DNA from: Flaccisagitta enflata
Lineage: Eukaryota
Direction of reading: 5' to 3'
Assembly: GCA_965153355.1 (NCBI GenBank)
Contig: OZ231126.1
Span: 3,162,001 to 3,226,000, forward strand
DNA: 64,000 bases
Positions within the stretch are counted from its first letter, which is position 1, and every line of letters begins with the position of its first letter. Shown here piece after piece: positions 114 to 61,867 of this stretch. The notes under the pieces were generated by a model. It was not told the DNA's origin. It worked only from the letters and a program-made list of their open reading frames with translations, and did not search any database. The position numbers and the translations under genes were made by a program.

Positions 114-712
114 TCCCAGCACCATTAGGATGACTGTTCAGACAAGAAAAGAGAATGAGCACTATTGAAGACAGGATTTTACGTTTCGCTTAAGCATCAG
201 GCACATAAACAAGATACTCTCATACAGATGAGAATACGGTCATAATTGAGAACAAATGTGCGCAGCTTTCATTGACCACGGGAATGGGTGTGCTTGTATG
301 ACAAGCGGATCAATATTCCTCACCATACCCAAACTGTATAAGATGGAAGGGGGCCTCCATGACTAGTTAATACGAGCACCACTTCTGGTTTTCCATAAAA
401 CTGAATCTGAAAAACATTCAGTTTCCATCTAGCCCAAAAGCAAACTGCTTACCAAAAGTAGCAAATGAGTGTTACCTGTTTAACCAAAATTGTTATGTCA
501 CACAGATTTGATAAAACATTTGAACACGGTGAATAAAAAACGATGTTTTTGTGACGACAAACCTGATGGCATATTTTTGCTAATGCTGAAGACCCTGATA
601 GATTTTTCAGTCCACGGTTTGTGCTCTCGGGTCAGCATCAGTTTTGCTACTCGGTCTATGCGATTTTGTATCTAAGATTCCCTTTGCCCTGTAACGGTAA
701 GCCATATTCGAG

Positions 713-3434
713 ATGGAGCCGACAGATCCTAACTCCGCGGTGTTGATGCTGCCAGCGGATCACTTTCCATTTGGAGAAGACTGCAAACTATCGCGCTTGT
801 TCCAATCGGTCCTTTTCCATCATGATGTTCAACCCAAGGTTGTGGATATCTTGCAAGAGCAGGAAATCTTTTCACTTCAGGAGATACGTCTCGCCGACCC
901 GGATGGCAATCAGGAGAGCCAGAATCTTTTTCAGGAGATTGCAAATCAAGTTTCTTCTCCCGTGCGTTGTCTCAGATTGAAGAAAGCCTTCCGTCGAATG
1001 CTCCGTCCGGATCCATTGGCGGCCATCAATGACTTGCCGTCTGTCGCTGGCCATACTTCCTCTGCTGTGAATGCTATTACCACGGGCGCCACTGCCATCG
1101 GTGATGCCACTTCCACTAATTTGGCATCTGAGAGGGTGGCAAACAACATGAATGTTACGGTCAAGGAGTCAACTGTTCAAGAGCAGATTAATGCAAGCAC
1201 AGTCATTAAAAATGTAAATGTGACAGATAGCACCAAGGAACTTGGGAAAGATGATTTGAATGAATTAGAAAAAGAATTTCGAGAATATCTGAAAGAAAAC
1301 ATTAAAAATCATCATGGAGAAATCTCCATTCCGGCTTCCAAACAACGAGCAAAGTTGAGTGAAGCTGTTCTTAATTTGAAAGTAAAACTAAAGAGAGAAG
1401 CCGAGGAACCGCATTTTGTCCAAGAGACGAATGTATCAAACGAATCAGAATTCGCTCAAAATTCTGATTCTGATTCTGATTCTGATTATTTCGATTATTT
1501 TCATTTATTTTCTGATTCTGATTCTGATTCTGAGTCAGAGATGCAAGGTGCAAATTCTGAATCGGTGCCAGATACTGAAACCGACATGCCATATCAACTA
1601 TCAGCATACACACCAGATGAGGACCTTGATGAAGAGAGTTCTGATGATTTTCAGGAGCCAGTTGAGTTCATTGAAATATGTTCCACCATTGAAAGTGGTA
1701 ATAGGCTTGTGATAATAACAGCTCCCGGAGGAAGAGGAAAAACCACAATTGCCAAGAAGATAATGTGGTGTTGGGGAAATGATACCTACTTTCAACTCCA
1801 AGGCTTTTCCATGGTCATTTGGATCGATGCAAAGTACATTGACAATGATAGCAACCTCTTTGAAAATTTTGTGAAGCAATACAACTTCATCGAGGGAAAA
1901 TTTTCACCATCTAAATGGAAGAATTTACCCGAAGTGATCCGACAAATTCAAGAGCGAATCGTTTGGATGGTGGATGGCCTCGATGAAAGCGCAAATCATT
2001 CACTAATGGAAACATTCATCAAAAAAGAGATTGGCCGCTATGAGAAAAGTTCATTTATCTTTTTGACAAGAGAGGAGGGAAAAGAAATCCTGGGGCCAAT
2101 TGCTAATCGCGCGGTTGAATTTACTCTCTGCAATCTTGATGAAAACCTATGCCAGGAGTTCATCAAAGTGTACCCTTTCTCAGAGAACAAATTTGAGAAA
2201 ACAGAAGAATTATCATCTCAGTTACAAATCAATGTGGCGCTCAAGTCAATGTTTTCTGTCCCAATCAACGCTGCTATGATTTGCCGTCTGTTTGATGATA
2301 AGGGATTTGACGGTAATATCAAGGATGAATTGGACATCATTGGAAAAAATCTCGCAATGAACATCAAAGCCGCTCAGTTCAAGCAAATTGAAGGACAACT
2401 GGCTAAGGATTATGTCTCCGCACAGGAAAAAGAGCGTCTGGATTTGAAAAAACGAAAGCTACTTGAAACCCCGATTGATGAAGTGCAAAAGAAAAATAAG
2501 GAGACACTAATTAAGTTAGGACATGCAATTTACAAATGCAATGGCAACTCAGTGATAGGGTTTACCAATTTGAAGGAATGGATAATTGAGGAAGCATTAC
2601 AGGACCTTAATGTGACTGAGGAGGATAGGTCTCTCATATTAAGATTGGATATTTTTGAGAAAATACTTGACGGGGATCAAACGATGCTGCGTTTTTACCA
2701 TCGAAACATCCGCGAGTACCTGGTCAGTTTGTTCATTATCAGCGTCACAGACAGAGACTTGGTCCTACCAAGAGAAACAGGCTGCTCAAGCGCCATTAGA
2801 AAAATTGGAAAGATTGCCCTGTGTGGGATCATCAGTCATCGGTCCCTCCGTCACTACCCAGAAGGAAAACTGCAAGATGCTCATCTCGCCATTTTTAAAT
2901 GCGCAGCGGCGCAATTATTCAGTAGTTCAGACCTTGACAGCAAATTCGTGATAGGTCAGCTTTGCAAAATTGTCAAACATATTTTCGAAAGCTGCAAAGA
3001 GGCTGATCAATGGCGACTTTTGGAAATCATCTTTGAAGCGATTTATTATGCAACGCAAAGGCCAGAAATGAAGGATGATCTTCAGACTCTTTTGCTTTAT
3101 GTTATCAAAGTTGCCAAGAAGCAATCATTTCCAATCAATCCAAATTGGGCTGATGCCATCAACAAAGGCATCCTTGATGCTATTGTGACTCATGCCAAAG
3201 ATCTCGAAAACTATGGCTGCCAAAGCTGCATATCTCTGGCGGTATTCGGCAAACGGATGAGATCGCTGTTTCAGCGGGAAAGGACGTCAATGTACAACTG
3301 GCCTGAAAATCAACCAGTTGTTATCATTCCGTTTGTGGCAAAGACCGATGAATACATTGTCATAAATCTCCCTGGAGAACCTGGAGCCAAACATGTTACC
3401 CAAGGGTTCAAATCTTTATTTTTGAAAAAAAATG
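713..3434 (+). CDS. NACHT-domain NTPase (NLR/STAND-like), exon 1: SAM-like N-terminus, acidic Ser-Asp linker, NACHT and helical domains
   Basis: Walker A (ITAPGGRGKTT), Walker B (VWMVDGLDES), sensor-1-like FIFLTR, PINAAMIC and the winged-helix FYHRNIREYL motif. Donor AATG|GTATGC at 3434/3435 (phase 1). The 1108-aa ORF in the track reads through a 321-nt intron (3435-3755) that contains a T/C-rich tract and a HINE. Confidence 0.9.
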
Positions 3435-3552
3435 GTATGCTATATTATGCTCTTTCTCTCTTTTATTCTTTCTTTCTTTCATTCCTCTTTCTTTCTTTCT
3501 TTCTTTCTTTCTTTATTTCTTTCTTTCTTTCTCTCATTCTTTCTTTCTTTTT

Positions 3553-3696
3553 AGTTGCGGACACGCAACTCTATAAGAGCCTTCGTCCGTCCGTCCGTCG
3601 GTCCGTTGGTGTGCACGAGTCGAAAAGTGTGAAAACGCGCGTTTCCGCCCCTGCCCACCCATCCGCAACTGGTATAGCCTTGTATCCGGCCTTGTT
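3553..3696 (+). mobile_element. Short Helentron-type HINE/DINE-1-like element in intron 1 of the NACHT gene
   Basis: Starts after a T-run with palindrome AGTTGCGGACACGCAACT, then a (GTCC)n microsatellite and subterminal inverted copy TCCGCAACT. Ends ...GTATCCGGCCTTGTT. No TSD beyond flanking Ts. Confidence 0.75.
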
Positions 3697-3755
3697 ATTC
3701 TTCATATTCACAAGGACTTTCATTGTCAAATTTTATGTTTCTGTGTTTTTTTCAG

Positions 3756-3967
3756 ATACTGTTACCTCTCCAATACCTCTTCAATACCGTCAAATGGATT
3801 TTCAATCCAGATTTGGAGATGGATATGAAGTGATCGCCGAATGCATAGATGGAAACATTTTTGTCTGGGGCGGCATCAGTGCTATAGAGACTCATATGAC
3901 GCAGAGCCAGATCGGACGAGCAATTTCCAGTCACACCTTTCTAAGGGCTGTTGCGATTTTTTTTCAC
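3756..3967 (+). CDS. NACHT gene exon 2, carrying the first Kelch blade (GNIFVWGG); 3' boundary uncertain
   Basis: Acceptor TTTTTTTCAG|AT at 3755/3756 is in phase with exon 1 and translates DTVTSPIPLQY...ECIDGNIFVWGG. Possible donor CAC|GTATGT at 3967, but coding-like sequence may end near 3928. Confidence 0.7.
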
Positions 3968-6218
3968 GTATGTGATCATTTCATGAGTGTGGTCACATAT
4001 CATATTAATGCTATCTCATACCTCGATAGTCAAAAATGAGTTACAGGCTCGAGTAAAGTCGTTTTGTGGGTGAAAATCGCTAAGAAAATGGCCCTAAACG
4101 AAGGAAATTGAGTTCCCTAGCCTGTTTCATCAATGAAGATGTTGAAACAATCTGACAAAACCAACGCTTCCAGTATGAAAACAATGGAACGTATAGCTAA
4201 TCCTGGGTTTATTTTCACTACAAAAAAAATCTGGCGGCTTCCGGGGTGAAAGTGTGCGCATAAAAAGAATTATGAAGTGAAGATGTCATGGTGACCTTCA
4301 GAAATTGATTATTAGTACAATTTTTGTAATATTACTTAAAGAAGCTATCAAACAAGCAACGAGTGGGGATTTTTTAGTAGAATTAGTATGAATATGAGTC
4401 ATAGAGCATTGTTGCTCAGATTTGACCAATGGGGAGCTTTTTTTATATGCTAAATCGATTTTCAGAGTGAGGTTCTCACTCTTTTTCAAGATCTCGAAAA
4501 TATTATTTTCGTTTTTGAGAATTAAGAATAACAAAAATAAAGAAAAAACTAACAATTCTAAGAACATACCGGCCTTTGTATGATAAATAGCTAGCCCGGT
4601 ATGTTTTTGTTTTTTTCATTTTTTCATTTTTTATGCAAATTCTTAATTCTCAGTGAATTAACTATGTCATCTTTTTTCTTCTTTTTTTCTTCGGATTTTC
4701 CTTGAAATCAGTGAAGATTGCCAGACGAAAGACAAACACATCGGGTTCAACCTTAGTTGTAGGGGAGCAAGTAGGGACATTATCAGGGCTGGACATGGGT
4801 CATTTTCAAAAAAAAAGTACATTGGGCAGGGGCAGTAGCATGTTCTAGCAGAGGCAGAAATAAGCGGAATTTATTGATTTTACCAACCCCCTAAAGAAAT
4901 GTGTCAACAGAGCACAAACACAGAATTATAAACAACATGTACCCTTTGCAGATATGTATGAATGTATGAATGAATGATTGCATGAATGAATAAATGAATG
5001 AATGAATAAATGAATGAATGAATGAATGAATGAATAACTGAAAGACTGGCCGGATGAATGAATGAATGAATGATTGATTGGATCGATCAATCAACACAAG
5101 AAGGCACGAGAAGCAGGAGAGAACTTGATGGAGCGTGCGGGTGGGCACGTGCGTGCGTGCGGCTGGGCAGGGTTAGAGATAAGAGACTAACCAAAGTATT
5201 TGGGCAGGAGCGGTTACTCGAAACCTCCAATATTAGCTGAAAAAGCAAACGGGGATTGCTGCCCAAAAACCTATCGACCAACTGACCGACGGCGTTTTGA
5301 GCTCTGAGTTCACTGCGCCATTCCAAATTCCCAAATGATCCTCTTTCACTGCCCATCCGCACGTGACTTGGGTAGCCGTGTATCTGGCCTTGTTTTAAAT
5401 TCCAACAAACAAAAACTCTTCTAAGGCAGAGATTATTCTCTTAGCGGATTTTACTCCTGCTTAGTGCTTTTAGTTGAGTTAGTTGGTCAGTCTGTCGGTT
5501 GGTAACACGCGTTTTTCGCATTACCGCTCCAGGCCAAATGCTTGGTTACTTTTTTTAATCACTGTCCCTGCCCACCCCCACATTACTTTGGTAGCCATGT
5601 ATCCGACCTTTTTTTTGTTGGGGACATGCAACTCTACATTTTGCTGTGTCGGTCGGTAGGTAGTAGGTTGGTCTGTCCGTCACATTTCTGAATTGTGAGT
5701 GGTTTTGCATTACTGCCTATGCCCAACTGTCCGCTACTGTCTTGCCTCTTTGTCAACATTTTGGACAATGAGGTATACTCTTGATTAAATGAGTGAATGA
5801 AATTAGATGAATGAATTTTACAAAACCCTCGAACAAATCAATGCATGACTGTAAATATGATTAAATGAATGAATGAATGAATGAATGAATGAATGTATAA
5901 ATGAATGAATGAATGAATGAATGAATGAATGAATGAATGAATGAATGAATGAATGAATGAATGAATGATCAAAAGAACGACTTATATGATGACAAATATG
6001 AAAGAACTGGGAACATGTAATCATGTTATATACGATACGGTTTTCATGGCCAGAATAAGAAAATTATGACATGACGAAGGATACTATTGAAAAATGAATT
6101 CATAGGTGAACAAATTGAAAAAAAAATAAATGAATAAGAAAGTAAATAAGTGAATGAATAAATGAACAAACAAATAAATGAAATATGAATAAATGATACA
6201 AATGATATTTCATTGCTC

Positions 6219-6961: not shown

Positions 6962-7343
6962 CATTGCTCTGGAACAAAAAAAAAACAAATATAAAAGGTT
7001 TGCTTGGTTTGGATGAAAGAAAACCGTAAACTTGCATGTTTGAATGCTTTTCATGATTAAATGAGTGAATGAATTTATATAAAATAGACAAATATTACTC
7101 TAATGCCATATCACAACAATAGGGTAGCAAAAATCAATTGAAAAACAACTCATTGTGAATAAAATTAATGAATTTCTCCTAATAGTTTATTTTTCCTTAT
7201 TCAATTAGTTTTTTTGCAATAAATAGCTAAAAAATCAATATTTTGCATTGATTTTTTTGCAATGTGCTCAATATACAATGCCTAATGCTAACCAAAAGTT
7301 GAATAGCTTAAAATTAATAATCTATTTTTTGACCTATACGACT

Positions 7344-8282
7344 GGGACCTGCATGGCTGATCTTGCTCCGTGTCATATTTACAATGTCAGAGAGAAATCT
7401 TGGAAAACCATCCAAGCAACAGGTGACGTTCATCCCGGTTATAAATATGCCGCGAGTGTTGAGCTGAATCGTCTCATTTACCTATTTGGCGGTTGGGAAA
7501 GCTATTCTATTAACGGTTGGAAGGCTGTAAATTGCCTTTCGAGTCTCTCTGTCACTGGGGAATTCCGCCGAGTCCCCGTCAAGGATGACTCGTTGCCGTA
7601 TCCGCGGCATAAGTCAGTCGGTTGGACTTATAATGGCAATCTCTATTTCGCGTTTGGGGGATCTGGAGGGGACCAGCCAAAGCTTGAATTTATCAAAGGC
7701 GGGGCCTGGACCAGTGGAGATGGCGAAGGTTTTACGAATGAGGTTTTGAAATTTGATTTGAGAGAAAAGTCCTTTTCCTTTTTGGCGACAAAAGGACCTT
7801 CACCTGCACCTCGCGAGGATTGCGGATTCGCAAAGCTGCCGACGAAAGTTTTCATTCATGGTGGTGGCGATAGATATCGTTGTTTGCGTGACTTTTTTGT
7901 GTTAGACTTGCTATCCAATGAATGGACGGAATTGAAAGACTATGGTCTCCCTTCCGCCAAACGAGGGCAATCATTGATAGCATTAGGTCCGCGGCAAATC
8001 ATGCTTATGGGAGGATCTGAGTCGATTAATGGGAGATATCCGTCAAATGCAGTTAAGATCTACGATGTGGCTACTGAGACCTGGAAGGAAGATCAAACGC
8101 TGCCGGTTGAAGTCTGTGGCGAGCAAGGAGGATTGGCTTGGCATAATTCAGTCGCGGTTAAAGAAAATAAGCGGGTCACCAAAGTTATAACCTTTGGAGG
8201 CTATATCAGGGGATATAAATACAACACGGGCAAATACTCGTCCCATCTCCTAGAATTTGACGTAGAAGCCGCACGCCAGTAA
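7344..8282 (+). CDS. Kelch beta-propeller (KLHDC1/2-like), probably the terminal exon of the NACHT gene; 5' boundary uncertain
   Basis: Five Kelch GG motifs (IYLFGG, YFAFGG, VFIHGG, IMLMGG, VITFGG) plus W-containing blade ends. IYNVREKSWKTIQATGDVHP, SVGWTYNGNLYFAFGG and GPSPAPREDCG recall KLHDC2. Stop TAA at 8280-8282. Confidence 0.85.
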   Translation, partial: GTCMADLAPCHIYNVREKSWKTIQATGDVHPGYKYAASVELNRLIYLFGGWESYSINGWKAVNCLSSLSVTGEFRRVPVKDDSLPYPRHKSVGWTYNGNLYFAFGGSGGDQPKLEFIKGGAWTSGDGEGFTNEVLKFDLREKSFSFLATKGPSPAPREDCGFAKLPTKVFIHGGGDRYRCLRDFFVLDLLSNEWTELKDYGLPSAKRGQSLIALGPRQIMLMGGSESINGRYPSNAVKIYDVATETWKEDQTLPVEVCGEQGGLAWHNSVAVKENKRVTKVITFGGYIRGYKYNTGKYSSHLLEFDVEAARQ

Positions 8283-12054: not shown

Positions 12055-14806
12055 ATAGAACATACTGGGGGAAAGTTGTAGCAAATTCAATTTCAAGAAA
12101 TGTTCCCTCAAAAAACTTCTCGAAATATTAATATATTAGCAGCAACACATGGAAGTGTGTTTTCATGGCAACCAGCTATTATGGGCAATAAAGCATCCTT
12201 TTATTATCCCATATTTGGAATATCACTCCCCTGGCTTTGTTTATTTTTCTATAATGCTTGCCCCCAATATTTCAGGTATAGACGAGATCTACTGTAGAAT
12301 CTATACAGAGAGTGCTTTGAGTGTCTGCCTGGCGACAAATGATAGTACTGATCAATAGCCTCAAAATGATCACTATCAAGATGTGCATTTCAAAGCTACA
12401 CTGTAACAAACTGTCATGTGTTTATATTCTATTCAACTCTTGTTTCCATTTCTTGATATCAACATTTTCACTTATTCCATGAGTCCTTACTTGGTGCCTG
12501 TTTATAAACTTTACAATGGTCAACAATCTTTATATCAAATCATGTGCGTTAAAGCTACAATATAAGAAAACGTCTTGGACTCTTATTTTTTCCAAGATAG
12601 TATGACATTGTTTATATTGTTGGTATGCTATTATGCATATTGACACACCCAAATGCCCAACGCAGCTAGCTAGCCCCAATGTTTGGGACGGTTCAGAAAA
12701 CTAAAGATAGAATTATGAAAAAATGTGATCACCAACTTACAAAATCTTGACGAAATTTTTGTTTTCTGGAATCAAAAAATTAAATTATGAGATGTTTGAA
12801 ACAACATTTCATTGAATAACTGGAATCAATCCAGTTTGTCACACGTCTCCCATCACAACGAAACCAATAACAATAAGATGGTGAAATCTGTCATCAGGAG
12901 TTCCATGAGTGAAAAAACAAAAAATAATAACAATTCATTTCTACAATAGCCATTCTCACCACTTGTCAAAACATGTAACCCTGATGATAGACTCAACCAA
13001 ATTTAAAAACACAAATAGAACGAAAGTAAGCTTCTTAGCATCCAAGGTGACAATACTTGAAAATTAACAGCATTGAAAAAAAAACAAAACTTGAAAAATA
13101 ACAGGTGACCCAGAGAAAAAGTGCTTCTCATTTCAACACCATCTTATCCACAAGTTAGAAGTTTCAATTGAAATGATGAAACAATTAAAATCATTTGACC
13201 AATCACATAAAACAATATTGAACAATATTGATACGAAAACACTTTTAGGGACCAACAATCAACAATTTCAATCAAGACAACAGCATTGGTCTCTTCACCC
13301 ATTTCATAATTGCATAATGTAACTTTGTGCATTAAAGAATCAGACCTGAAAAGCAATAACTGAGACCATAGATCATAATCAACCACGTCTGAAAGACAAA
13401 TTGTATGTTAGCATCCTTGCAAAAAAAAATTAGACATGCACCTGAGCATTTTGCAATTCTATGTTTATCAAATACACTCTCATGGTACAGTAACATAATG
13501 TTTTAGATCATTGCGCCTGTCAATCATAAAAGAATTATTGTCTAAGCCGTCATATCACTGGAATCTCAAGCATTATTAATTGGCATTCACAAAAACAAGG
13601 CCAACACCTATAAGTCGCATGCGGTACATAAGTAACTTAAGATGATTTTAATTGACTCAGGATGACTTAAAATGACTTAAGATGACTTGAAAATACTAAA
13701 AATGACTTGAAAATACTAAAAACGACTTAAACAACTATATTGACCTTATTAACTTGAGTGACTATGTATATGACTTACAATGACATAGAATGACTTAAAA
13801 TAACTTAGAATGACCTAACATGACTTAGAATGACTTAGAATGAATAAAAATGACTTAAAGTATAATAAAATAGTAAAGTGTGACGGACGGACAGACTGAC
13901 CGACGGACGGACCGACAAAGCATGGTGTAGAGTGTAGAGTGCACGCGACTAAAAACTCAGATCAAGGGGCCAATGATCAGTAATCAAATTTTCATCATGT
14001 TTTTAGACAATCACTCCTATCACCACGAAAATAAAAGTAATCTTGTAAAGGAACAAAGATCAGAGAAAAAGTATGATTTCTATGTTAGTTGTTAGTTTAG
14101 GTTAGTCACTTCCTTTGGTATACATTGAACAAACTAGCAATAAGATGGAATCAATACCTTTATGTTACACACAGAAAATGCTCAGTTAAAGAGCTTAAGT
14201 AATTAGTATGAACCCGTTGAACTTTTTGTACAAAACTTGAACTAGAATCTTTTTAATGGTATAAATATAATCTTGAATTGTGGATTAATTCTAGCGAATA
14301 AATAGGGAATGTAAAGAAAATTATGTCTTACTGTTTAATAGGATTTTATCAATACCGTGAACTATATTAAACATTAGTTAAAAGAATAGAATTAATATAT
14401 AACTTTGGTATGGGTTGATAAAAGAGTAACACCAGAATTCTTGAGCATAAGCCAGAGTCATACCAGGTGATCTACACAACTGTTACTTTCTTTGAATCTC
14501 TTGTATCATTAAAAGACAGGGTATAAATTCTTTGTTTTCAGTAAATTTAATTAAGTGGCTTTTTCTTTATATGCTTATTCTATAATATACTTTAAAAGAG
14601 AAAAAAAGCATTTTGGTCTACCCGGTAGCACAAAGACATTGTAAAGTAACGTCTCATATGAAAAGCATCTCCTCAATTCATTTCAATTTCTCTAGGCAGT
14701 ATTCAGTAAGCCAACTGTGAGATTATTCTAGTCTCTAATTAGCCATTTCTTTGAGTTGTTGTTAATTGGTCATCAATGATCCAACTGCTTGAGTTGCTGT
14801 TGGTCA

Positions 14807-17023: not shown

Positions 17024-18020
17024 CTATTTTGTAAGTATGGATTGAGGGAATGCCTCGAGCAGCACCTCCCAAATGCGGGAGAAAAGAGCGAAGAATCTAA
17101 AGCGATAAGCTTGGGGAGAGGATTGCCACTTGAGGTGGATGGCACGGACGAGGTGGACAAGTGGAGCAACATTGAATATTGCCGCAATGATGTTACTTTT
17201 TGGCGCGCCTCTTCTGACACGATCAATGATATAAACTTAAACGTTTGCAAGATTTATTTATGAGGATCAATTTATCCTCCAATCACTTAAAATATTGATG
17301 CAAAAATTATCAGTGCAAATGAACGATTGAAAATTGTAAAGCTAAAGAAATTGAAGAAAGGAAAATTTGATTATTAGCAAGCATCTATTTTTTCCCACAT
17401 TCTATAAAAAAAACCTCTCAGTACGCCCTCCCATGACTCAATGCGTCACACGATCAGTTGGCCGATCCAATTGTCGATCCGTATCACATAACTTAATAAC
17501 TAATGTAGTTTGAGAATCATTTTTTCATGTTCCTAATCGTATCACTGCTTGTTTTCAAAAGTCATTTTGGCCAAGGGGCGAGTATGAAGATGGTAGTGAA
17601 GAAACCAAACCACAGTTGGCCTTCATTGTAGTATCTGTAGCCAAGTGCCATGTCAGATCCAATATCTATGAGATAGATAGTGGCGCTCAAGATCAAGTGC
17701 GGAATGAAAATTTTGTCACGAGCCCAACTCAACAGATAGCAGCAGTTGTCTTTACGGCAGACGACAGTGAAGCAACTACAACTGGAAGAGGAATCCATTT
17801 CATGGACCGGATGAGTATGATCTTGAGTTGGATAAATCGGATCACTACCGAAATTGGTGATTCTGCTTATGCTATGTGTGTGGTCGATACATGTAGAAAA
17901 AGAATTAGTGACTTTGCATCGGCAAATCGATGGACACGAACATGAGCAGAAATCGTCGACCATCGAAGACACTGGATTACTACAGCATAGCGAAGCCGTT
18001 GATGCGCGATTAGCAGACAT
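17024..18020 (-). pseudogene. XK-related (XKR scramblase family) gene fragment with disrupted reading frame
   Basis: Segment 1 (17562-18020): YLIDIGSDMALGYRYYNEGQLWFGFFTTIFILAP, the XK N-terminal TM motif, ending in a stop with no clear donor. Segment 2 (17213-17024, after a CAG acceptor): FSRIWEVLLEAFPQSIL, the XK ExxxExxPQxxLQ motif, then frameshift/stop. Either a pseudogene or consensus errors. Confidence 0.65.
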
Positions 18021-19390
18021 TGCCGCTCTTTCAAGTTTCTTACTGGCTGGTAGGCTTTTAAAATCATGGAAAGTTATAGAGGTCGTTCAGACCTGGGAAG
18101 ATAGAATTTACCACAGAAGACAAATAAACTAAGACTGATTTGGAACTAATTAACTAATGAAAAGATGCTTTATTGCCCACGGGTGTTGGTTGTGAAACAC
18201 ATTTCCATGTATTCACGCCAAAGTATCATTATTCTTTTGAGAATTGTTTCAGGGAACAATAATGTTTAGAATTTGATTTATATAACTTTCAGAGAACAAG
18301 AATATTGCTCGTTCGATGGGTTACATGAGCATCACAGGGCTGTCACATAGCATAATTCCTTATATCTACAAAACAAGCACATTTGAGAATACATTGAAAA
18401 GTTTTAGCAAATTTCATTTTAAACAATGTTCCTTCAAAAAATTTCTCAAAATATTGATACTTTTGCATGAATACATAGAAATGTGATTCCATGGCAACCA
18501 ACACCCATAGGCAATAAAGCATCCTTTTATTAGTCTTATATTCAAACATTTAAATTTTAAGTTTATTTGTTTGGCTTTGTAATAATTTCTGCATTAAAAT
18601 CTAGACGATATCATCAGAATAAGGTTAATTAAATATCCTGTTCAAAAATTGATAATAAAAAGCCTTATTGTTAGATGGGAGGACAGCTTATATGTAACTT
18701 GGGTAGATTTGTTCGCCTTTCCATCTATAGGGCAATCTGGCTCCACCTTATTCAGTTTTTGAAGAATTTGAATTTGAATAACGCACAGGTAGCGCGGGAG
18801 CAGGAATGAACGTTACGAAACAAATTCCAGTTCTTAAGTTCTTTAAGTTTAACACGAGGTGCCCGCGAGCAAAATGTCATAAACAAAACCGGTTGGAGCT
18901 GAAATTCTGATATCTTATTCTTTTGAAAAATTTTTTGAAGTAACAATATTATACTCGATAGGAAGTGAGAGAAACAAGCCCAGGCGGGCAACTAGATGCG
19001 TCCTCTGCGTAATATCAGAAGAGGCGTAACCGACGGACGGACGGACGGACGGACAGACGGACGGACCGACCAACCGACCGACCGACGGACAGACCCTCCT
19101 ATAGAGATGCGATGACGCATCTGAAAAGAGGCCGGATAGACAAACACCAAACTTGCAGGGAGCAATCATTCAGATAACTCCCGTTAACGCCGAAAAAGCA
19201 TATAGTGTTACAGATCAACCGACCGATAGACAGATAGGCCAATAAATAGGTATAGCAGATTAAAGAGTCGCATGCACTCAATTCAAAGGCTACACAAACA
19301 AACAAAGAAACACACTCTCACACAAACACCCTAGTAAACATATTTTTACATAGACATAGACACACTCAACACGCATTCAACGTGACTAAC

Positions 19391-27483: not shown

Positions 27484-28127
27484 TTTAGGAGCGACAAAGC
27501 ACCTCTACAACTGGCTCTGTCCGTCAGTTGGTTGCTTGGTCAGTTGGTAACGCATTTGTTCGACGATCCACACGTCGCACCTTATTGGCCTACGTGGCCT
27601 TGTTCTTTTGTCTAAGAACAATTGTAAAGACGAAACAAGGCCGGATACACGGCTACCGGAGTCGCGTGCGGGTGGCCAGGGGCCATATTTGAGGTCACCA
27701 GACCATTTGGGCAGGAGCCATGAGGTCAAAGTAATAAAATCATAAAAAAAAAGTAAAGTGTGACCAACCAACCGACCAACAGACAAAGCGGGTTGTAGTC
27801 GCGTGCACGCGACTAAAAAGTCGCGTGAATCTTGCGTGAATCTTGCGTGTATTGGGTACACGGATACTCGGGTACACGGATATACGGCTACCCTAGTCGC
27901 GTGCGGGTGGGCAGGGGCACTTATGGAGGTTTCTGGGACGTTTGGGCAGGAGCAGTGAGCTCAAAACACGCTGAAATACGCTGAAAAAGTATAATAGGGA
28001 CCAACTGACGGATGGCATGACGGATGGACAAACGGACAGACAAAGCGGGGTGCAGAGTCGGGTAGCACTCGACTAAAAATATGTAACCTCTTTTTCTGTG
28101 TTGCTGTTTACCAAATCGCGTACAGTT

Positions 28128-32524: not shown

Positions 32525-35685
<3,161 letters not shown>

Positions 35686-36293
35686 TTTTGGCTTGTCTCC
35701 ATTCTGTGTCCAGTAGAAAATAGCAAGCAAAACAAATCAAAAATGTCTTATTATAATTTATATGATATTATAGGTTTTCATTGACCGTTATCAATCTCAC
35801 AGTATACTCAAAAAATTTCAACTCATTACTCAAATGATAAGTTATCAAAAAATGGTATAAAAATCAAATTTTCCCCTCCTCGATTTTTTGCTTTTTAGCC
35901 GCGTGCACGCGACTCTACAACCTGCTTTGTCCGTCGGTCGGTTGGTTGGTCGGTTGGTCGATCACACTTTACTTTTTTATGATCTTATTTCTTTGACATC
36001 ACTGCTCCTGCCCAAATGGTCTGGTGACCTCAAATATGGCCCCTGCCCACCCGCACGCGAATGTAGTTTCCCGAATTGAGACGAGGAAGAGTGAAATGCT
36101 TTGACAGTTTCTGAATTCAGTCGCGTCATGTTGCTAAGTTACCTAGTGAACATAAACAGTTACGTGAAAACTGACCGTACTGAGAGGACGTAGTCGGAAT
36201 AATTTTCTTTCCGCATTTCAATTTTCTTCTCTAATTCTCTCGATCTCTCGATCAATTCAAATTTTCTCTCGTTGTGAATATTTCGGGCAGAAA

Positions 36294-37239
36294 ATGCCAC
36301 GGGATCGTTTTTACGACAGCGACGATTCAGAAACCGAAGCCTACGCCCAGTATGGGAGCAGTCGCAGCGGCAGCAGCTTTTCTCGGAGTCGCTCCCGCAG
36401 TCGCTCAAGAAGTCCGGCTGGGCCTCGGCGCCGCGTTTCGCGCTCTCGCGAGCAATCAGGGGAGCGCGAACGCGTGCATGGGGGTCGCGCGCGTGGCGGT
36501 CAGTCACGCGAGCGTCCCAGATCTGTTGTTTTGCCCGCATCATCTGGTATGCCGCCATTGGCTAATTTACCGCCTTCCGATCTTCGTTCTGAAATCGAAT
36601 CTTCGTTGGCCCAACGAGTCACCGAGGCCGTCACGTCTAACCTCAAGACGCAGTTGGTGGAGATTCTGTCAGAGAGAGATGGGCGATCATCGGACGTCGC
36701 CAAAGAAATGGAGTCCCTGAAAGCTGCTCAGCAACATACTTCGCTGCTGTCGGAAGCTGCGGAGTTTACAAGCGAATCGGCTCAGAGGCAGTTTATCGCT
36801 TTTGCTAAAGTGAAGTCGGGCATCTCCAACGCTCGTCGTCTTTTCCAGTCCGGCGACGCCACAGGGGCGGATGCTGCTTTGAAAGAGGTGGATTCCATAA
36901 CCGACTTCCGCCTCGACATGATTCGTCGCGCCGATTCTCAACCCGGTGGCTGGGCTGCAGCCAATGTTTATGAGAAAAAGATGGCAGGTCAATTAGACAG
37001 TAAGAAGGATCGAATCTGGAGAGCCGCCGTTGAAGAGTCAAATCAAACGCGCAAAGATAAGAAGAAGCCCTCAGGTTCTCAGAGGTCAAATCAGTCCTTC
37101 CAAGGTAAAAAGATACTACATACAAATATTTAATCTTATTCCTGCTATTCGGCAGTCGTGAATTTCCACTTGTCCTTTCAAGAATTTGTTTTAACGGTTC
37201 TTTCTTTCAACTTTTGTCTGTTGACGCTCGATTTACAAT

Positions 37240-37330
<91 letters not shown>

Positions 37331-37800
37331 CAGATTCAGATTGCTTTCTCGTCTTTGTGGTTGTTAGTGTCTCTCCGGCCAATACACGCTTCCCTGTCAT
37401 TTCACGAATTCCGTGTCTCGTATTTGGGAAAGGGAAGTTTTCCGGAGGAAAAATGTAGTTTCCCGAATTGAGACGAGGAAGAGTGAAATGCTTTGACAGT
37501 TTCTGAATTCAGTCGCGTCATGTTGCTAAGTTACCTAGTGAACATAAACAGTTACGTGAAAACTGACTTTCCCATCCCACCCAACCCTTAGTTGGCAGCT
37601 CCGCGAGACCGCGTTTGGAGTGTTATGCATGTGGCGCGAGAACGCATATTGCCTCCGATCCTTCCTGTCCTGAACGCGCAAATCGCCACTACTCCTTTGG
37701 CCACGACCAGAGACGTGCTAACTACAATGCTAGAGGAGGCCCCGTCCTCCCTTCTTACAACGCAGGATCGAGCCACGCCTCACATTCATCCCAAAGTTGA
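36294..37800 (+). CDS. Spliced gag-like protein (~339 aa): RS-rich N-terminus, helical core, C-terminal CCHC zinc knuckle
   Basis: Exon 1 36294-37104 (CAAG|GTAAAA, phase 1) plus exon 2 37592-37800 (CCCTTAG|TT) gives in-frame ...SFQVGSSARPRLECYACGARTHIASDPSCP... The RLDMIRRADSQPGGWAAANVYE segment resembles the DIRS-gag 'IADxSxxGWxxVxEY' motif. Confidence 0.8.
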
Positions 37801-37970
37801 TTCTGGTAAGGATAGTGTAGCTGGTACCGTGAGGGCCTCAATACTCGTGTTACAACATCGTCGAAGTAAGTAGCAATTGTGTAGGTCAAAAGCCTTTGAT
37901 GAGTTTTTCTAAGTTGGTGTCACAGCTAGATCATTTAATAGGGTTTGAAGTTTGGTTATGGCTTAGAGCT

Positions 37971-38167
37971 TGTCTCAGATGTTCCTAGAATGGAACGGGA
38001 AAGACATTAATTATTCAAAGTTTGTCTCAGATGTTCCTATTATGGAACGGGAAAGACAGTTGGATTGTTTAAAGCTTGTCTCAGATGTTCTTAATATGGA
38101 ACAGGAAAGACAAAGTTCATTGCTCTAAACTTGTCTCAGATGTTCCTAAAATGGAACGGGAAAGACA
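37971..38167 (+). repeat. Four 36-nt hairpin-forming repeats inside the split-repeat element
   Basis: Consensus TGTCTCAGATGTTCC-N6-GGAACGGGAAAGACA at 37971, 38023, 38077 and 38132, separated by 16-19-nt spacers. Confidence 0.9.
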
Positions 38168-40473
38168 ATTTTTCCTTGCTCAAAGTTTATAAGGCTGTAA
38201 GTATTTGTAAGTATAGAGGGAAGGCAGTATTGTATCTCTGTAATATTAATTATTTTCTTTTCCAGGTGAGCAAAATTGAAGTTTTTGCCTATGTTGGGCC
38301 TTTCTTCAGCTGGCTCAAAACGTGCCTCTTTTGACCATTTAGTTTTGTGCCAATTTGCATCAATAGACCCTTCAAAAGGAAGATAGTTGACAATGCTCTA
38401 AGCTACTTGCCTACTTGCTGTTTCCGTATCAAAAATAATCGATAATTCTATACTTCTATGAATTTCATTCTTTTAACAGTTTCAGGAACAACAGAGCCTC
38501 GTCTCTTGCCATTGATCACCAAGCTTAAATTACAAGCATTGGCAGATGCAAAATTGCTTGCTCTCATTCCTACAGGATTCTCAATACAGAGAGTTACAAT
38601 TTGTTCGAGCTGGCCTTGCTAATTGACAATTGGTAGACTTGTGTATTTCCTTCATAAAGGGTTCAGTTTGTATATTCACATACTCCACATTCGACAGGAT
38701 ACTGCTCATTTGACGTCTTAGTGACAATACTCTAATAATTGTTTTATTTCAGCTTCAAAAATTAACTTGTTTTCTTTGCAGGAGTGGATTTAATAATCAT
38801 TAAATAAAATTCAGCTCAATTTTTTAATTCTTTGCCATCACCTTCTTTGCCTCCCACCCTCCTATCCAGGCTGAAGTCCAGTTTCCACGAAATTCCGCCT
38901 CATTCGACATTCGTCAATCCAGTTGTCATCGCCATGTTTCGTCCCACTTCCGGTGACGACTCACTTCGTTCATTTTGAGTCCCAGGATCAATTTCCCGTT
39001 CTAGTCCAATCTACTATAGTCGCATTCTTCATACGGCAAGAAGTCAATTTAGCATACGGCAAGAAGTCAATCTAAATTGCTCTCATTCCAAAGCGACATG
39101 TGATCAAAATGATTTTGTCTTGAAATTCATTGTTCCTAATTGATTTTTCAATCTTGACATGACATGACATGATTCGAGCTCAGTCTCTGTCCTCTCTCCG
39201 GCCAATACACGCTTCCCTGTCATTTCACGAATTCCGTGTCTCGTATTTGGGAAAGGGAAGTTTTCCGGAGGAAAACTTCAGTAGCCGTGTATCCGGCCTT
39301 GTTTTCTTTTAAAACTGAACATTATGATATTCATTTTTTTTTTTAACCTCATTCTTCTTGAACAATAAGCATTTTTTCTTTTGTCATTCAATGGACAACT
39401 AATTGAGGGACATTCCCCTCCATTTTCATGTCATTGGGTTGATCCTAAGCAGAGAAATGAAATTTTTCTTGGAGCGTATCAATTCGCGAACACCCCCAAA
39501 TTTGTTCCATACGCATACCTAACGCTTAACATATGCCACTATGGTGTGAAAATGACACATTTTATATAAAATCTGACCACACCACGTGAAAGCGTGAAAT
39601 TTAACTCCCAGGCGTTCAGTCACAATGAAATTTTATATTTTGTTGGTCTTGAAAGTGTTGCAGAATTGATGCGCTCATCGAACAATCATCATAGTTATTT
39701 TCTTCTTTTTGGAAGTCAAGATTTTGCGGACTTTGAAGGAAAAAAATACAATTTATCCAATTTACAAAAATGTCCATATCTCATGAACCCTTTGAGCTAT
39801 ACACACGATCTTCTGCAGGAAAACAGATTTTACCAAAAGAGATCAGGAGAAAAAATTTGGTATTCTGAAGATGAGTCAAACTAGCCCAACCAGCCCAACC
39901 AACCTACCAGATGAAAAATGAAAAAGTGGCACAACTTTCGAATGAGTCTGCCGATTTGGCTGAAATTTTGCATGAAAGTTGTTGAAGAGTATCTACATTA
40001 CTAGTTTGAGCTTATAGCTTGGCCGAACAAGAGGCACAAGTGGCCCAACTGTTTGCATATCTAGCCCTGCTAGGCTAAGGTTGGTTGGTTTTGGTTGGGC
40101 AGGTCCAGTCAAAAAGGCTTACATGTGCAAGTTTTGTAACTGCCTGCTGGTGGGTTCCTATTCGGGCAGGGTCCCCCGTTGAAAATTCGTGGATGTTTGG
40201 GCAGGGGCAGTAATGCAAACAAGGCCGGATACACGGCCACCAGTTGCGGACGGGTGGGCAGGGGCGTTTTCCCACTTTTCAACTCGAGCGTGACGGACGG
40301 ACGGACGGACCAACGGACCAACGGACCGACAAAGCCTCTTACAGAGTTGCGTGTCCGCCACCAAAAAGTGCTCAGGGATATTGCAAGATGTAAAGTCGCG
40401 TATCCGCGTATAAAATGTTAAGGATGGACCAACCAACCGACATGGCTAAGTGCAGGGTCGCTTGTCTGCGACT

Positions 40474-41089
40474 CACTGTGCTTCCTACAGAAGTCTGAGT
40501 GAAAAATCGTATAACTTTGACTTTCTCAGCAGTTTTGTATAGTGTTGGGGTGTGATAACATGTAACTAGCCAAAATGAAATCATTCACCGAGCACTTTTT
40601 GAGTAATCTTCAAAATGGAAAAAAATTAGACCCATTTTCAATAAAGATTCTACTGAGTTGTATTGACCTATTTTTTGACTGCATATTGTTAATCTATGCA
40701 AAATTCCCTTTCATTTGATAGGTCGCACTACATGGTTTAATTTCAAAATAAAATTTTCATTTTTTGAGCCACCGTTGCGTTTTTGTAACGGTGACCCAAA
40801 AAATGAAAACTTCAATTCTTTGCAAAAGTATGGAGTGCGACCTATCAAATGAAAGGGAATTTTGCATAGATTAACAATATGCAGCCAAAAAATAGGTCAA
40901 TATAACCCAGTAGAATCTTTATTGAAAATGGGTCTAATTTTTTTCCATTTTGAAGATTACTCAAAAAGCGCTCGGTGAATGATTTCATTTTGGCTAGTTA
41001 CATGTAATCACACCCCAACACTATACAAAACTGCTGAGAAAGTCACAGTTATACAATTTTTCACTCAGACTTCTGTAGGAAGCACAGTG
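40474..41089. mobile_element. Palindromic MITE with CACTGTG...CACAGTG ends and 4-bp TSD (Chapaev-type)
   Basis: Arms are near-perfect reverse complements; GACT flanks both ends. Confidence 0.85.
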
Positions 41090-41490
41090 GACTACAAACG
41101 AAACAAACGAAATAAACGAAACAAACAAAACAAACGAAACGAAACAAAACAATTGAAAAAAAGCTTCAAAATTACAGTCCCCGACTGGGGACTGTAATTT
41201 TTGAAGATTTTCGCGCAAACGCGACTCGAGAAGATACACGACAAATGAAAAAAAAAAAAAAAAAAAATTCCAAAAAAAATTTCCAAAAAAAAAAAATTCC
41301 AAAAATTCAAAAAAAAAAAAAATCAAAAAAAAAAATTTCAAAAAAAAAAAAAAAAAAATTCAAAAAAAAATTCAAAAAAAAATTTCAAAAAAAAAATTTC
41401 AAAAAAAAAATTTCAAAAAAAAAAATTTCAAAAAAAAAAAATTTCAAAAAAAAAAAAAAAAAATTTTCAAAAAAAAAAAAAAAAAAAAGC

Positions 41491-42240
41491 AAGTCCATGA
41501 TGGCACACCTTGAAGTCCATGATGGCACACCTTGAAGTCCATGATGGCATACCTTGAAGTCCATGATGGCATACCTTGAAGTCCATGATGGCATACCTTG
41601 AAGTCCATGATGGCATACCTTGAAGTCCATGATGGCAAACCTAAAGAAAATCAGAATGTAATGAATGAGCAGGTAAAAAGTTTCATCAACCCAAATCCTC
41701 TATATAAATCGCTTAAGTCCTAGTAACATATTACTATGTATACAAATAAGCTAATATCTCATACACCAGACCTCAGATTTAATTCGAATTTTGCAGGGCT
41801 TGTTAATTTAGTACCCTTTAATTGTGTACCAAATTTAAAAAAAATTCACATGGTTTTACTACCCTTTACCTATGTAAATTGCCTAAGTCATAATAACATA
41901 TTACTACATAAATAAGCTAATATCTCATACACCAGACCTCAGATTTAATTCAAATTTTGCAGGGGTTGTTTATTTAGTATCCTTTACTTGTGTACCAAAT
42001 AAAAAAAAAATTCACAAGGTTTTACTACCCTCTACCTATGTAAATTGCCTAAGACTTAGTAACATATTACTACATAAATAAGCTAATATCTCATACACCA
42101 GACCTCAGATTTAATTCGAATTTTGCAGGGCTTATTTATTTAGTACCCTTTACTTGTATACCAAATTAAAAAAAAATTCATAAACTTTTACTACCCTCTA
42201 CCTATGTAAATTGCCTAAGTCCAGTAAAATATTACTACAA
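41491..42240. repeat. 22-bp tandem repeat (~6.5 copies) followed by ~167-bp tandem repeat (~3 copies), inside a probable HINE-like element (about 41160-42460)
   Basis: (GAAGTCCATGATGGCAYACCTT)n; TAACATATTACTA...CATACACCAGACCTCAG recurs at about 41725, 41894 and 42060; terminal hairpins at 41168-41201 and 42431-42450. Confidence 0.85.
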
Positions 42241-42818
42241 AAATAATAGGCAAAGGGTAGTAAAAGTTAATGAATTTTTCTGAAAATTGGTACACAAGCT
42301 CCCATTGACATAAAAATAACACTGGTAAAGTTTCATAAACTTCTGAGGCCTGGTTCAGAAGATATGAGAGGGTTTGACAGTAACAGAGTAACAGAGTAAC
42401 AGACTACACAAACAGGCTACTTCATAGTCACCGACGAAAACTGTTCGTCGGGGACAAAAAGAAAAAACAGGGCCGGATACATGGCTACCCTAGTCGCTTG
42501 CGGGTGGGCAGGGGCTGTATTTGAGCAGGAGCAGTGAGGCCAAAGACCGCAAATACCCCAAAAAAGTAAAGTGTGACGGACCGATGGACCGACAAAGCGA
42601 GATGTAGAGTCGCGTAGCACGCGACTAAAAACACATGTACTAACAAACAAACAAACAATAATGTAAACAAAAAACAAAAAACAAACATGCAGCTCCATGG
42701 AGGCAAATCAGGGTCCGACGATAACGTAACAACGTCTCCGCCATGCCGGCATAAGCCAACCTAGGAGATCCATTCGCTGTACTACCCTAACACGCACACA
42801 CGCGCGCACACACGCGCG

Positions 42819-48290: not shown

Positions 48291-48372
<82 letters not shown>

Positions 48373-50207: not shown

Positions 50208-52734
<2,527 letters not shown>

Positions 52735-59561: not shown

Positions 59562-59647
<86 letters not shown>

Positions 59648-61867
59648 CTCTCTCCTTCCTCTCATGAGACAGTTGGGGCCTGGCCCGAGCAACAACTCAC
59701 TTGGAACAGAGTCATCACCGGCAAAGGGTGGACAATACATCCAATTGAGTCCCGCAGAAGGCAGATCCAGACAGTTGCCTGTTGGGAAGAGAGAGTGGAG
59801 AAGAGAGAGAAGAAGAAGAAGAAGAAGAAGAAGAAGAAGAAGAGAGAGAGAGAGAGAGAGAGAGAAAGAAAAAGACAGACAGACAGACAGATAAAAATAT
59901 GGCCAGACAAAGTGACCAGAAGACCGACTTAGAGACATGTAGCTACATGAGGAGAACGACAGAAAGGTTTAGAAAATTGCAAGGACCCAGACACAAATTT
60001 GAATCTCATCATGAATGGGTGGGAACTGCGCAATGGGCGTGGGCGGAAATGCGCATGGGCGGAAATGCGCATTTTCGCTCTTTTCAACACCGTCACCAGT
60101 TACAGACGAAAGTGAAATACAAGAAGTTAACCCCCCAAAAACTGTAGCACCCCCCCCCCTAAACCGCGACATGAAGAAAAACATATAAGGTAGGGAATGG
60201 AAGCTTATATCCATACAATTAGCCTCATCAGAGCATTTTTGGAATTTCATTCCCAGTGAAGAATTATAGCAAGAAAACCAGTGAAAAATTGCATTTTTAG
60301 CATTATTCAAAAAATATTAAATTTGGATAGTTTTTTAGCTGTAGCTTTTTACGGGGATTGAAATTCCAAAATGTTTTTCTGCGACAAAAAAAAAAGCAAA
60401 ACAAAATACAAAACTAATACGATCCGCTTCCTTTTCTTACAAGCATGTATAACAACCTAGATTTTTTTCACCTTTAATTTGATCGATGGTGTAAGCCAAG
60501 CCGGTCCTAAAGTCGTGAATTTCCCTGATTGCGACCCCTTCAAAGTCCTCAATGTCGTCCATGTCGTCAAACACCATCGTCGGAATATGATCGTATCGTG
60601 CCAACAGACGAGGCTGATCGTACCAAAAACGAGTCGTACGCTGCCACAAAAATCAGGTAACGTGGGTTAAGTTATTGATAACACGCGCCGTGCTTGCGGA
60701 CACGGGCAGTAAACACGAACTAAAAAGTAAATTGTGACCGACAGTCCGACTAAAAAGTGGCTGATAGAAAGTCAAAACCAATCATAAATGAAAGAAACTA
60801 AAGGAAACAAGTACCCCGGGGGTACAACGATGCGTCCACATGCGGCTTAGCTTGTTAAGAATGATGCAATATTGCATCAACCTTGTGGAATGATGCAATA
60901 ATCTGAGATATTTCCAAGATTCTATGCATTTTCATCATTCTCCAACTCGATCACCACGGACCGACCAACCAGCGGACGGGCGTGCGGACGGACAAAGCCT
61001 CTTATAGAGATGCGTGGACGCATCTAAAAATAAGAAAAACAAGGCCAATAAGGTGCACCGTGTGGATCGTCAAACGAATGTGTTACCGTCCGACCAACCG
61101 ACAAACAGACCAACGAACACAGCCAGTGATAGAGGTACGTTGGCGCGCCCAAAAAAAGGAAGAGTCAAATAAAGAATGAGTGAATGAGATCAGGTATAGA
61201 AAGAAGTATCTAGATAGAAAAAAAAGAAAAAAAAAAGAATGCGAAAAGAGAGGAACAAGTTACGCGAGGTCACAATATCGTTGCGGACTGGTGGGCAGGG
61301 CATACAACCCCAGCCTATTAACCTCTCACTCAAGCGCGCGCACACACACACACGCACACACACACACAAAAAAAAAAATATCACTGCAGCAACATGAAGG
61401 TGCGTTTTTCGCGTTCTCAAGTGGAACGTAACGGACTAACGGACGGATCAAGTCTCTATAAATAGAGTTGTATCAGTAGGACCCGAATTGTGTGTGTGTG
61501 TGCAATACATTACAGGAAGAAAAAATTACTTAAGAGGCTGATATTTGGAATATAGACTAATGAAACGATGCTTTGTTGCCCATGAGTGTTGGTTGCTATG
61601 GAAACACATTTTCATGTATTCACGCTAAAGTATCAATATTTTGAGAACATTGTTTAAAACAAAATTTGCTACAACTTTCCAACAATATATTTTGAAGTGG
61701 CAGAGTAGCTTAACAACAGCCGTGGCCCCTTGCTCATCAACAGCCCTGGCCCCTTGCTCATCAACAGCCGTGGCCCCTTACCCATCAACACTCCGTGGCC
61801 CCTAGCACGTGGCCCCTTCCGTAATGGGGCCCGTGGCGAATGCCCCCCTACCGAGAGCAAGCATACC

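Follow-up and report, generated by a model that had tools for sequence, protein, structure and literature searches.

A conserved array of four hairpin-forming units in a small gag-only split-direct-repeat element: a candidate cis-acting module

Retroelements of the DIRS order typically insert without duplicating their target, and their cis-acting RNA signals are almost unknown. Among the tyrosine-recombinase retrotransposons, Ngaro/PAT-like elements are described as carrying split direct repeats in the arrangement A1-[ORFs]-B1A2B2 (PMC8547959, PMC9210276, PMC4157794; split direct repeats also in PMC3266345), and Pat1-like elements as having a gag-like first ORF with a zinc finger (PMC4157794). 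For DIRS-1 an internal region is reported to be required for retrotransposition and amplification to proceed via linear single-stranded cDNA; the primer of reverse transcription in DIRS-order elements has not been determined (PMC7192593).

The retroviral constitutive transport element (CTE) is the second system with which the present locus can be compared. AAGACA is the conserved NXF1/Tap-binding sequence of CTE loops (PMC4330393, PMC4174252) and is described as lying in the loop (PMC4330393). The CTE of MPMV has two such loops (PMC4330393, PMC4174252, PMC7551171) and, in some reporter contexts, four tandem copies are needed for an effect (PMC4174252).

We analysed 64 kb of the genome of Flaccisagitta enflata (the 'window', that is, the whole stretch of 64,000 nucleotides examined). 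An initial annotation had drawn attention to four structured 36-nt motifs downstream of gag in what it took to be a parasitic element. A gag-like gene with a zinc knuckle does lie upstream of the array, and both are contained in a discrete mobile insertion of 3.2 kb (36060-39275), which splits a copy of a dispersed repeat, R, without target duplication. The parts of the insertion and its flanks are as follows.

35891..36060, no strand assigned: left half of repeat R, matching an uninterrupted R copy at about 27626-27965 (minus strand) at 146 of 173 positions and ending in ...CGCGA
36060..36175, + strand: A1, left terminal repeat, 116 nt, 100% identical to 37452-37567
36294..37104, + strand: exon 1 of the gag-like gene, from the ATG to the splice donor (phase 1), defined by the ORF and nine homologues
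37105..37591, + strand: intron, GT...AG, 487 nt, containing (GA)43, B1 and A2
37370..37452, + strand: B1, internal repeat, 83 nt, 100% identical to 39193-39275
37452..37567, + strand: A2, internal repeat abutting B1, identical to A1 at 116 of 116 positions
37592..37800, + strand: exon 2 of the gag-like gene, with the CX2CX4HX6C knuckle and the TGA stop
38799..38808, + strand: ATTAAATAAA, candidate poly(A)-signal-like hexamers, the only ones from the stop codon to B2
39193..39275, + strand: B2, right terminal repeat, identical to B1 at 83 of 83 positions
39275..39311, no strand assigned: right half of repeat R, 33 of 37 positions matching the R copy

The right half of R starts where the left half ends; the target is thus not duplicated, with one A ambiguous, and in this the element is like members of the DIRS order. 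Its organization is A1 - 1.2 kb - B1A2 - 1.6 kb - B2 or, in full, A1 - gag exon 1 - B1A2 in the intron - gag exon 2 - array - B2. The scheme A1...B1A2...B2, with A1 equal to A2 and B1 equal to B2, is shared with the Ngaro/PAT-like elements, and the gag-like first ORF with a zinc finger is shared with the Pat1-like elements. Unlike the Ngaro/PAT-like elements, however, it is only 3.2 kb long and has no RT, RNase H, methyltransferase or recombinase (Pfam search of 12 ORFs of the non-coding part). In addition, B1A2 lies within the gag intron, 1.6 kb before B2, and not 3' of a recombinase gene as in the descriptions covered.

Between 37800 and 39300 there are 30 ORFs of at least 35 aa; 12 of these were searched for enzymes and none had a Pfam match at E<=1. 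Among the 50 long ORFs of the window, 30 were scanned and contained neither RT nor recombinase (the other 20 lie over simple repeats or are the element's own frames). Since its only gene is gag-like and there is no RT or recombinase, the element can only be a non-autonomous derivative. On the basis of its terminal architecture we file it, provisionally, as a gag-only non-autonomous derivative whose membership is unproven by enzymes. It is a small element of the split-direct-repeat type with an intron-borne junction and a constrained hairpin array. The Ngaro/PAT-like descriptions covered here, which were not gathered by a search aimed at such arrays, contain no reference to conserved hairpins of this kind.

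Several other classifications were considered and rejected. An LTR or TRIM element is ruled out: the ends consist of A only or B only and not of a full B+A, and there is no target duplication. The structure is not a tandem duplication, as its two internal parts bear no relation to each other and the spacing is 1392 for A-A compared with 1823 for B-B, nor does it represent two separate tandem elements, as the two exons encode one conserved protein that is contiguous in the relatives P0004 and P0025. A Penelope-like element or a retrozyme was discarded (no hammerhead or other Rfam match).

The terminal repeats carry short sequences of their own: GTCTCAATTCGGGAAA on the minus strand of A1, 7 nt from the end, and GTCTCGTATTTGGGAAA on the + strand of B2, 21 nt from the end. 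The motif GTCTC-N5/6-GGGAAA occurs four times in the window, compared with 0.10 expected. The sites are in B1 and B2 (+ strand) and in A1 and A2 (minus strand), and form inverted arms around the B|A junction. B1 and A2 together (198 nt) fold into a long hairpin centred on this junction (-60.5 kcal/mol, z -3.2), and a window at 37380-37499 reaches a fold z of -4.4. The long hairpin or palindrome at B1|A2 (37394-37500) arises from complementarity between the 3' part of B and the 5' part of A, and has a small UUUUCC-GGA-GGAAAA hairpin at its centre. The same complementarity exists between the two ends of the element (39217-39275 with 36060-36108). The B1|A2 palindrome is a candidate recombination or bridging site.

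The relative abundance of these sequences was estimated from a DNA run (X1). Contigs of exact A and B sequence have depths of 189 and 176, compared with 84 for the contig carrying exon 2 and the array, and the variants of B sum to a word depth of about 2137, compared with 84 for the adjoining contig. The high summed depth of the B variants indicates that related ends are repeated in the genome. No branches were seen in the contig that spans exon 2 and the array, which forms one single path, so that the array-bearing copy may be alone and inactive.

The gag-like gene has two exons and extends from the ATG at 36294 to the TGA at 37800. Its spliced frame encodes 339 aa, with an SR-rich N-terminus, a helical domain and the knuckle. 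Exon 1 has nine homologues from metagenome and run assemblies (48-65% identity). In five homologues the gene model reads past a conserved ...FQG/FKG/YQG at the end of exon 1 and into the intron, while P0004 and P0025 are contiguous across the intron position. Exon 2 matches the C-terminus of P0004 at 40 of 65 positions (E 5e-25) and P0025 at 23 of 45. A profile search of 1.84 billion representatives gave 76 relatives, all of 395 aa or less, and a polymerase-fused form is therefore absent among those representatives. Relatives are conserved down to about 20% identity, and the intron position is conserved as well.

The knuckle of the protein, CYACGARTHIASDPSC, has the spacing CX2CX4HX6C in place of the canonical CX2CX4HX4C, and the Pfam model zf-CCHC_6 matches it at E 0.052 (13.9 bits, with a cut-off of 22). 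The same variant is found in the relatives P0004 and P0025, and P0063 has the canonical spacing. Pfam showed no family shared by 34 members, and a PDB sequence search with the family profile gave nothing below E 0.33. In the AF2 model (pLDDT 74.7), helices are predicted at 94-257 behind a disordered SR-rich head. In a search for a capsid-like fold with this model, Foldseek returned no match to the PDB at E<=0.001 and VIA gave generic coiled coils (best Z 6.9). The nearest Atlas clusters have 67-132 members and are unnamed, the commonest known phylum being Mollusca or Cnidaria. Cluster names sought for five relatives yielded none. Clusters of this kind, large and without a name, look to us like those of a transposon protein.

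The array starts 170 nt 3' of the stop codon of the gag-like gene and is upstream of the sole poly(A)-signal-like site between the stop codon and B2. It consists of four units of 36 nt, starting at 37971, 38023, 38077 and 38132, all on the + strand and separated by spacers of 16, 18 and 19 nt.

37971..38006, + strand: hairpin unit 1, loop TAGAAT
38023..38058, + strand: hairpin unit 2, loop TATTAT
38077..38112, + strand: hairpin unit 3, loop TAATAT, with C14>U and G27>A, pairs kept on the + RNA
38132..38167, + strand: hairpin unit 4, loop TAAAAT

Tandem Repeats Finder reports the array as 37969-38167 (period 55, 3.7 copies, 81% matches). With up to three mismatches allowed, the pattern TGTCTCAGATGTTCCTNNNNTGGAACGGGAAAGACA has exactly four matches in the 64-kb window (0, 0, 2 and 0 mismatches in units 1 to 4) and no match in any of 100 shuffled sequences. 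A search of the window with a covariance model of the four units recovers just these, with E values from 1e-13 to 1e-17; the next best match has an E value of 3.3. The predicted fold of the + RNA is in register in all units: a 5-bp stem, a 4x4 internal loop CAGA/GGAA, a 6-bp stem and a 6-nt loop, or (((((....((((((......))))))....))))) in dot-bracket notation. The folding energies of units 1 to 4 are -12.5, -12.5, -10.8 and -12.5 kcal/mol. Units 1 and 4 have fold z values of -3.2 and -3.7, with 1 of 200 shuffles folding equally well, and the 241-nt array region has a z of -3.5 on the + strand. Across the element, 6 of 78 + strand windows are structured at z <= -2.5. Three of the six are in the array, one is at the B1|A2 junction and two are in GC-rich coding sequence.

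These results bear out most of the anatomy given in the initial annotation: the four 36-nt units downstream of gag, the terminal loop sequences and variable spacers (with the refinement that only the two central loop bases vary) and the C>U change in the stem of unit 3 (C14>U, C-G to U.G), which keeps a G-U pair. The proposed helices and internal loop (CAGAU/RGGAA) agree with the predicted architecture except that the minimum free energy fold adds U10.G27 to the inner stem, reducing the loop to CAGA/GGAA. The R of RGGAA does vary as claimed, through G27>A in unit 3, at a position that is not part of the loop but is paired (U.G to U-A). Two other interpretations of such units were set aside. 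They are too short, at 36 nt, for miRNA-type hairpins, and a transcription-factor palindrome (steroid-receptor-like TGTTCC/GGAACA) would have the wrong spacing and too small a footprint for the invariant positions seen here.

The cores are much less variable than the spacers. Four of 36 columns vary in the cores and 15 of 20 in the spacers (Fisher p=2.2e-6), and pairwise differences amount to 15/216 (6.9%) and 50/114 (44%), respectively. Units copied whole should diverge evenly in the absence of selection, so this difference means that the cores are constrained relative to the spacers. The near-invariance of stems and internal loop, already remarked on when the units were first described, is thus confirmed. 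Outside the loop centre there are only two changes in the cores, C-G>U.G and U.G>U-A, both in unit 3.

The nature of the constraint is another matter. The initial annotation took the pattern as suggesting selection on RNA structure, which the four units do not demonstrate. Of the 11 pairs, nine are invariant across the units and the other two have a change in one partner; no pair has both partners changed, and compensatory change is thus absent. Standard pairs occupy 44 of 44 pair cells on the + RNA, compared with 43-57% when the partners are slid, and 40 of 44 on the minus strand. Folding of the minus strand is as good or better (array z -7.2, compared with -3.5 on the + strand; single units -12.1 kcal/mol), and pair probabilities of the units in long context are 0.08-0.80 (+) and 0.08-0.98 (minus). 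The two transitions in unit 3 keep pairing on the + RNA only, and the evidence for RNA pairing rests on these two single changes in one unit. Furthermore, the internal-loop sides CAGA and GGAA are not complementary and yet both are invariant in all units, and four of the six terminal loop bases are also invariant across the units. These unpaired positions vary no more than the stems; the constraint is therefore one on sequence, and a DNA site fits it as well as an RNA site does. Invariance of both non-complementary sides of the internal loop is, however, not to be expected of a simple two-fold DNA site for a dimer.

In the sequences searched the motif is not a generic minisatellite: the window has no matches outside the array, and the contig collections gave only single matches due to chance. 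In metagenome contigs the motif CAGATGTTCYN6GGAACRGGAA gave 17 single matches, GC-rich and all attributable to chance, none of which (0/17) has the TGTCT/AGACA stem or a second unit. It gave none in viral contigs and 12 single chance matches in bacterial genomes. Loci encoding relatives of the protein were also sought, with 595 pattern matches in metagenome contigs, 69 in viral contigs and 257 in genome contigs, none of them confirmed. These collections evidently do not include this animal and the negative results from them say little. A search of Rfam, proposed as a check, gave no family match; the snoRNA hits obtained, at 15-24 bits where the thresholds are 52-100, are due to chance. No tRNA genes were found in the window. 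One RNA run from the same study had no reads on this stretch in the roughly 6% of the run covered, which is no test either way.

Pieces of the locus (37911-38072 and 38835-39165) occur at 95-99% identity in a run labelled marine metagenome. The two differences listed for the first piece, at 37958 and 37962, precede unit 1, and the cores of units 1 and 2 have none listed; the number of sites is too small for a test.

We favour, at a little under an even chance, the reading that the units form a multivalent protein-binding stem-loop array on the + RNA of the element. The array would be a cis-acting module of the 3.2-kb non-autonomous retroelement, acting on + strand RNA. It would lie in the 3' untranslated part of both the gag mRNA and the unspliced genomic RNA, and would offer four copies of one stem/internal-loop/stem hairpin as protein docking sites. 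This supposes transcription through the array, the + strand as the acting strand, a protein that binds it and one of the roles outlined below. The B1A2 junction is thought to be needed by such elements to rebuild their ends and, placed in the intron, it may be the counterpart of the internal region reported to be required for retrotransposition of DIRS-1 (PMC7192593). With B1A2 carried by the intron, the full RNA would have to leave the nucleus unspliced.

Two ways in which the array might act follow from this reading. It could promote export or expression of the intron-retaining genomic RNA, by analogy with a CTE, or it could bind the element's own knuckle protein for RNP assembly; recruitment of an RT, also suggested at first, is putative as well. 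Taken singly each is unlikely, and we consider them about equal, knuckle binding being almost as likely as CTE-like export. The analogy with the retroviral CTE extends to several features: a candidate cis RNA element placed 3' of gag on an RNA that would have to keep its intron, a stem and internal loop next to AAGACA, and multiplicity (four units). AAGACA is present in all four units, with 27 occurrences on the + strand of the window, four of them in the array. There are also clear differences. The units are of 36 nt each compared with a single stem of 150-175 nt in the CTE. The predicted fold places most of AAGACA in a stem and not in a loop, since AGACA pairs with UGUCU as the outer stem and leaves just the first A in the 4x4 loop. 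The array matches no Rfam family, the host is an invertebrate and NXF1 binding there is putative.

A more specific version of CTE-like export would be that of an invertebrate element with B1A2 in a gag intron, whose four CTE-like mini-hairpins recruit host NXF1. The retroviral CTE would then have a counterpart, convergent or ancestral, outside vertebrates and LTR elements. We regard this version as unlikely. The predicted pairing of AGACA and the far smaller size of the units count against any CTE-like reading, as does the chance expectation of AAGACA, about 0.01 per 36-nt unit, which is not negligible. Against the + RNA reading as a whole are the absence of compensatory change in the 11 pairs, the minus-strand fold, which is no worse, the chance that this copy is alone and inactive, the lack of a capsid-like match for the protein and the non-canonical spacing of its knuckle.

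The array was originally suggested to be a packaging signal, among other roles. It is like nucleocapsid-bound packaging signals in being a cluster of stem-loops with a knuckle protein encoded next to them, but the knuckle is single, of the form CX2CX4HX6C, and its binding is putative. Moreover, such signals are expected in sequence unique to unspliced RNA. The array is 3' of gag, in exon 2/3'UTR and downstream of the acceptor at 37591, and is therefore common to spliced and unspliced RNA. An array present in both forms cannot alone select genomic RNA for packaging, which disfavours this role. For the same reason an export or expression element fits better than a genomic-RNA packaging signal.

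The first alternative to an RNA array is that the units are DNA-level sites, in double-stranded DNA or in single-stranded minus cDNA, for a protein that binds the ends or the junction. This would most plausibly be the tyrosine recombinase of an autonomous partner, with the units as accessory sites comparable to arm-type or subterminal sites. The GTCTC-N5/6-GGGAAA sites described above, restricted as they are in the window to the vicinity of both element ends and the junction, speak for it. Units 1, 2 and 4 carry GTCTC and GGGAAA in the order and orientation of the arms, 20 nt apart, and account for three of the five matches in the window to GTCTC-N9-30-GGGAAA. In addition, the unit is an imperfect palindrome with the overall size of a recombinase core site, its minus strand also folds, and DIRS-1 is reported to amplify via linear single-stranded cDNA (PMC7192593). 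However, the block match was chosen after seeing the data, the block spacing differs (20 nt compared with 5-6 nt) and an unbiased alignment of units with the junction is not significant, with 180 of 2000 shuffles and 359 of 3805 random 40-mers scoring as high. For accessory sites the distances are also long: about 1.0-1.2 kb between the array and the right end, and about 400 nt between it and A2. Finally, the internal loop is asymmetric, and unit 3 loses a pair on the minus strand and not on the + RNA. We consider DNA sites possible, if unlikely.

Hypervariable tandem repeats occur in the 3' untranslated regions of LTR retrotransposons, and the array resembles these in lying between the last ORF and the terminal repeat. 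It could accordingly be an inert minisatellite in the 3' untranslated part of a retroelement, its palindrome incidental and its units the product of recent or biased duplication. Tandem repeats are frequent across the window, there is no covariation among the four units and the element may be a single, possibly dead, copy. The array differs from the LTR-retrotransposon repeats in that its cores are strongly conserved and palindromic and only the spacers drift. Core and spacer divergence differ by more than 6-fold (p=2.2e-6) in place of the single rate expected of a neutral minisatellite, and whole-unit duplication or homogenization does not yield such a pattern. Hairpin-templated repair is no explanation, as unpaired bases of the core are conserved too. 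An inert repeat thus seems to us distinctly improbable.

Least convincing, and in our view very improbable, is a domesticated host gene with the array as a 3'UTR control element (localization, stability or translation) for a host RNA-binding protein: the ORF is intact, the intron position is conserved, conserved relatives extend to identities as low as about 20%, X1 shows no branching of the contig that carries the array and the array is placed as is typical of 3'UTR elements, but the precise insertion in R and the 100% identical split repeats point to a recent mobile copy, the nearest Atlas clusters are large and unnamed (which we read as a transposon protein) and B-like ends are repeated in the genome.

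If the multivalent RNA array is the correct reading, the element would be of interest in several respects. Being gag-only, it could be copied by a partner provided that its cis signals are kept, and it would be a compact natural system for defining what must stay in cis for such copying. It would also bear on the nuclear escape of intron-retaining genomic RNA and on whether the AAGACA/NXF1 route of simple retroviruses has a greater age and a broader distribution than has been assumed. Should the units act at the DNA level, they would suggest that eukaryotic retroelement recombinases have accessory binding sites, of which the literature covered has no description either.

A number of minor features were noted in and around the element. 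Two tandem GTAAGT motifs resembling 5' splice sites (TGTAAGTATT, 1.9 copies) lie at 38196-38266, 29 nt after the array, and are followed by a pyrimidine tract and AG at about 38255-38266. The region may represent a short intron in the 3'UTR or two sites for U1 binding; cellular CTE loops are noted to have a conserved 5' splice site beside them (PMC4338338). The gag intron contains a perfect (GA)43 microsatellite (37242-37327), and similar GA runs are found at 34306-34460, 48294-48370, 52330-52436 and 59563-59892. Copies of the dispersed repeat R are located at 27626-27965, 35891-36060 with 39275-39311 (the copy that served as insertion target), 42494-42623 and 13862-13947, and are characterized by a GCGTGCACGCGAC palindrome and a (GGTC/GGTT)n run.

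Elsewhere in the window, the region 32550-35670 consists of tandem repeats of about 160 bp in two inverted blocks around a (GA)n core, with many inverted-repeat pairs of 71-95% complementarity, and looks like a satellite-bearing foldback or MITE-like element. An inverted repeat of 265 nt, 96% complementary and with 86 nt between its arms, occupies 40474-41089. Adjoining features are a low-complexity stretch rich in lysine (41116-41535) and two tandem repeats, one of 22 nt (41491-41644) and one of 166 nt (41739-42236). Other ORFs of the window mark it as animal DNA, namely an uninterrupted ORF of 1112 aa with a NACHT domain (701-4036, E 6e-8), an ORF of 351 aa with Kelch repeats (7227-8279, E 1e-43) and, on the minus strand, an XK-related fragment (17565-18086).
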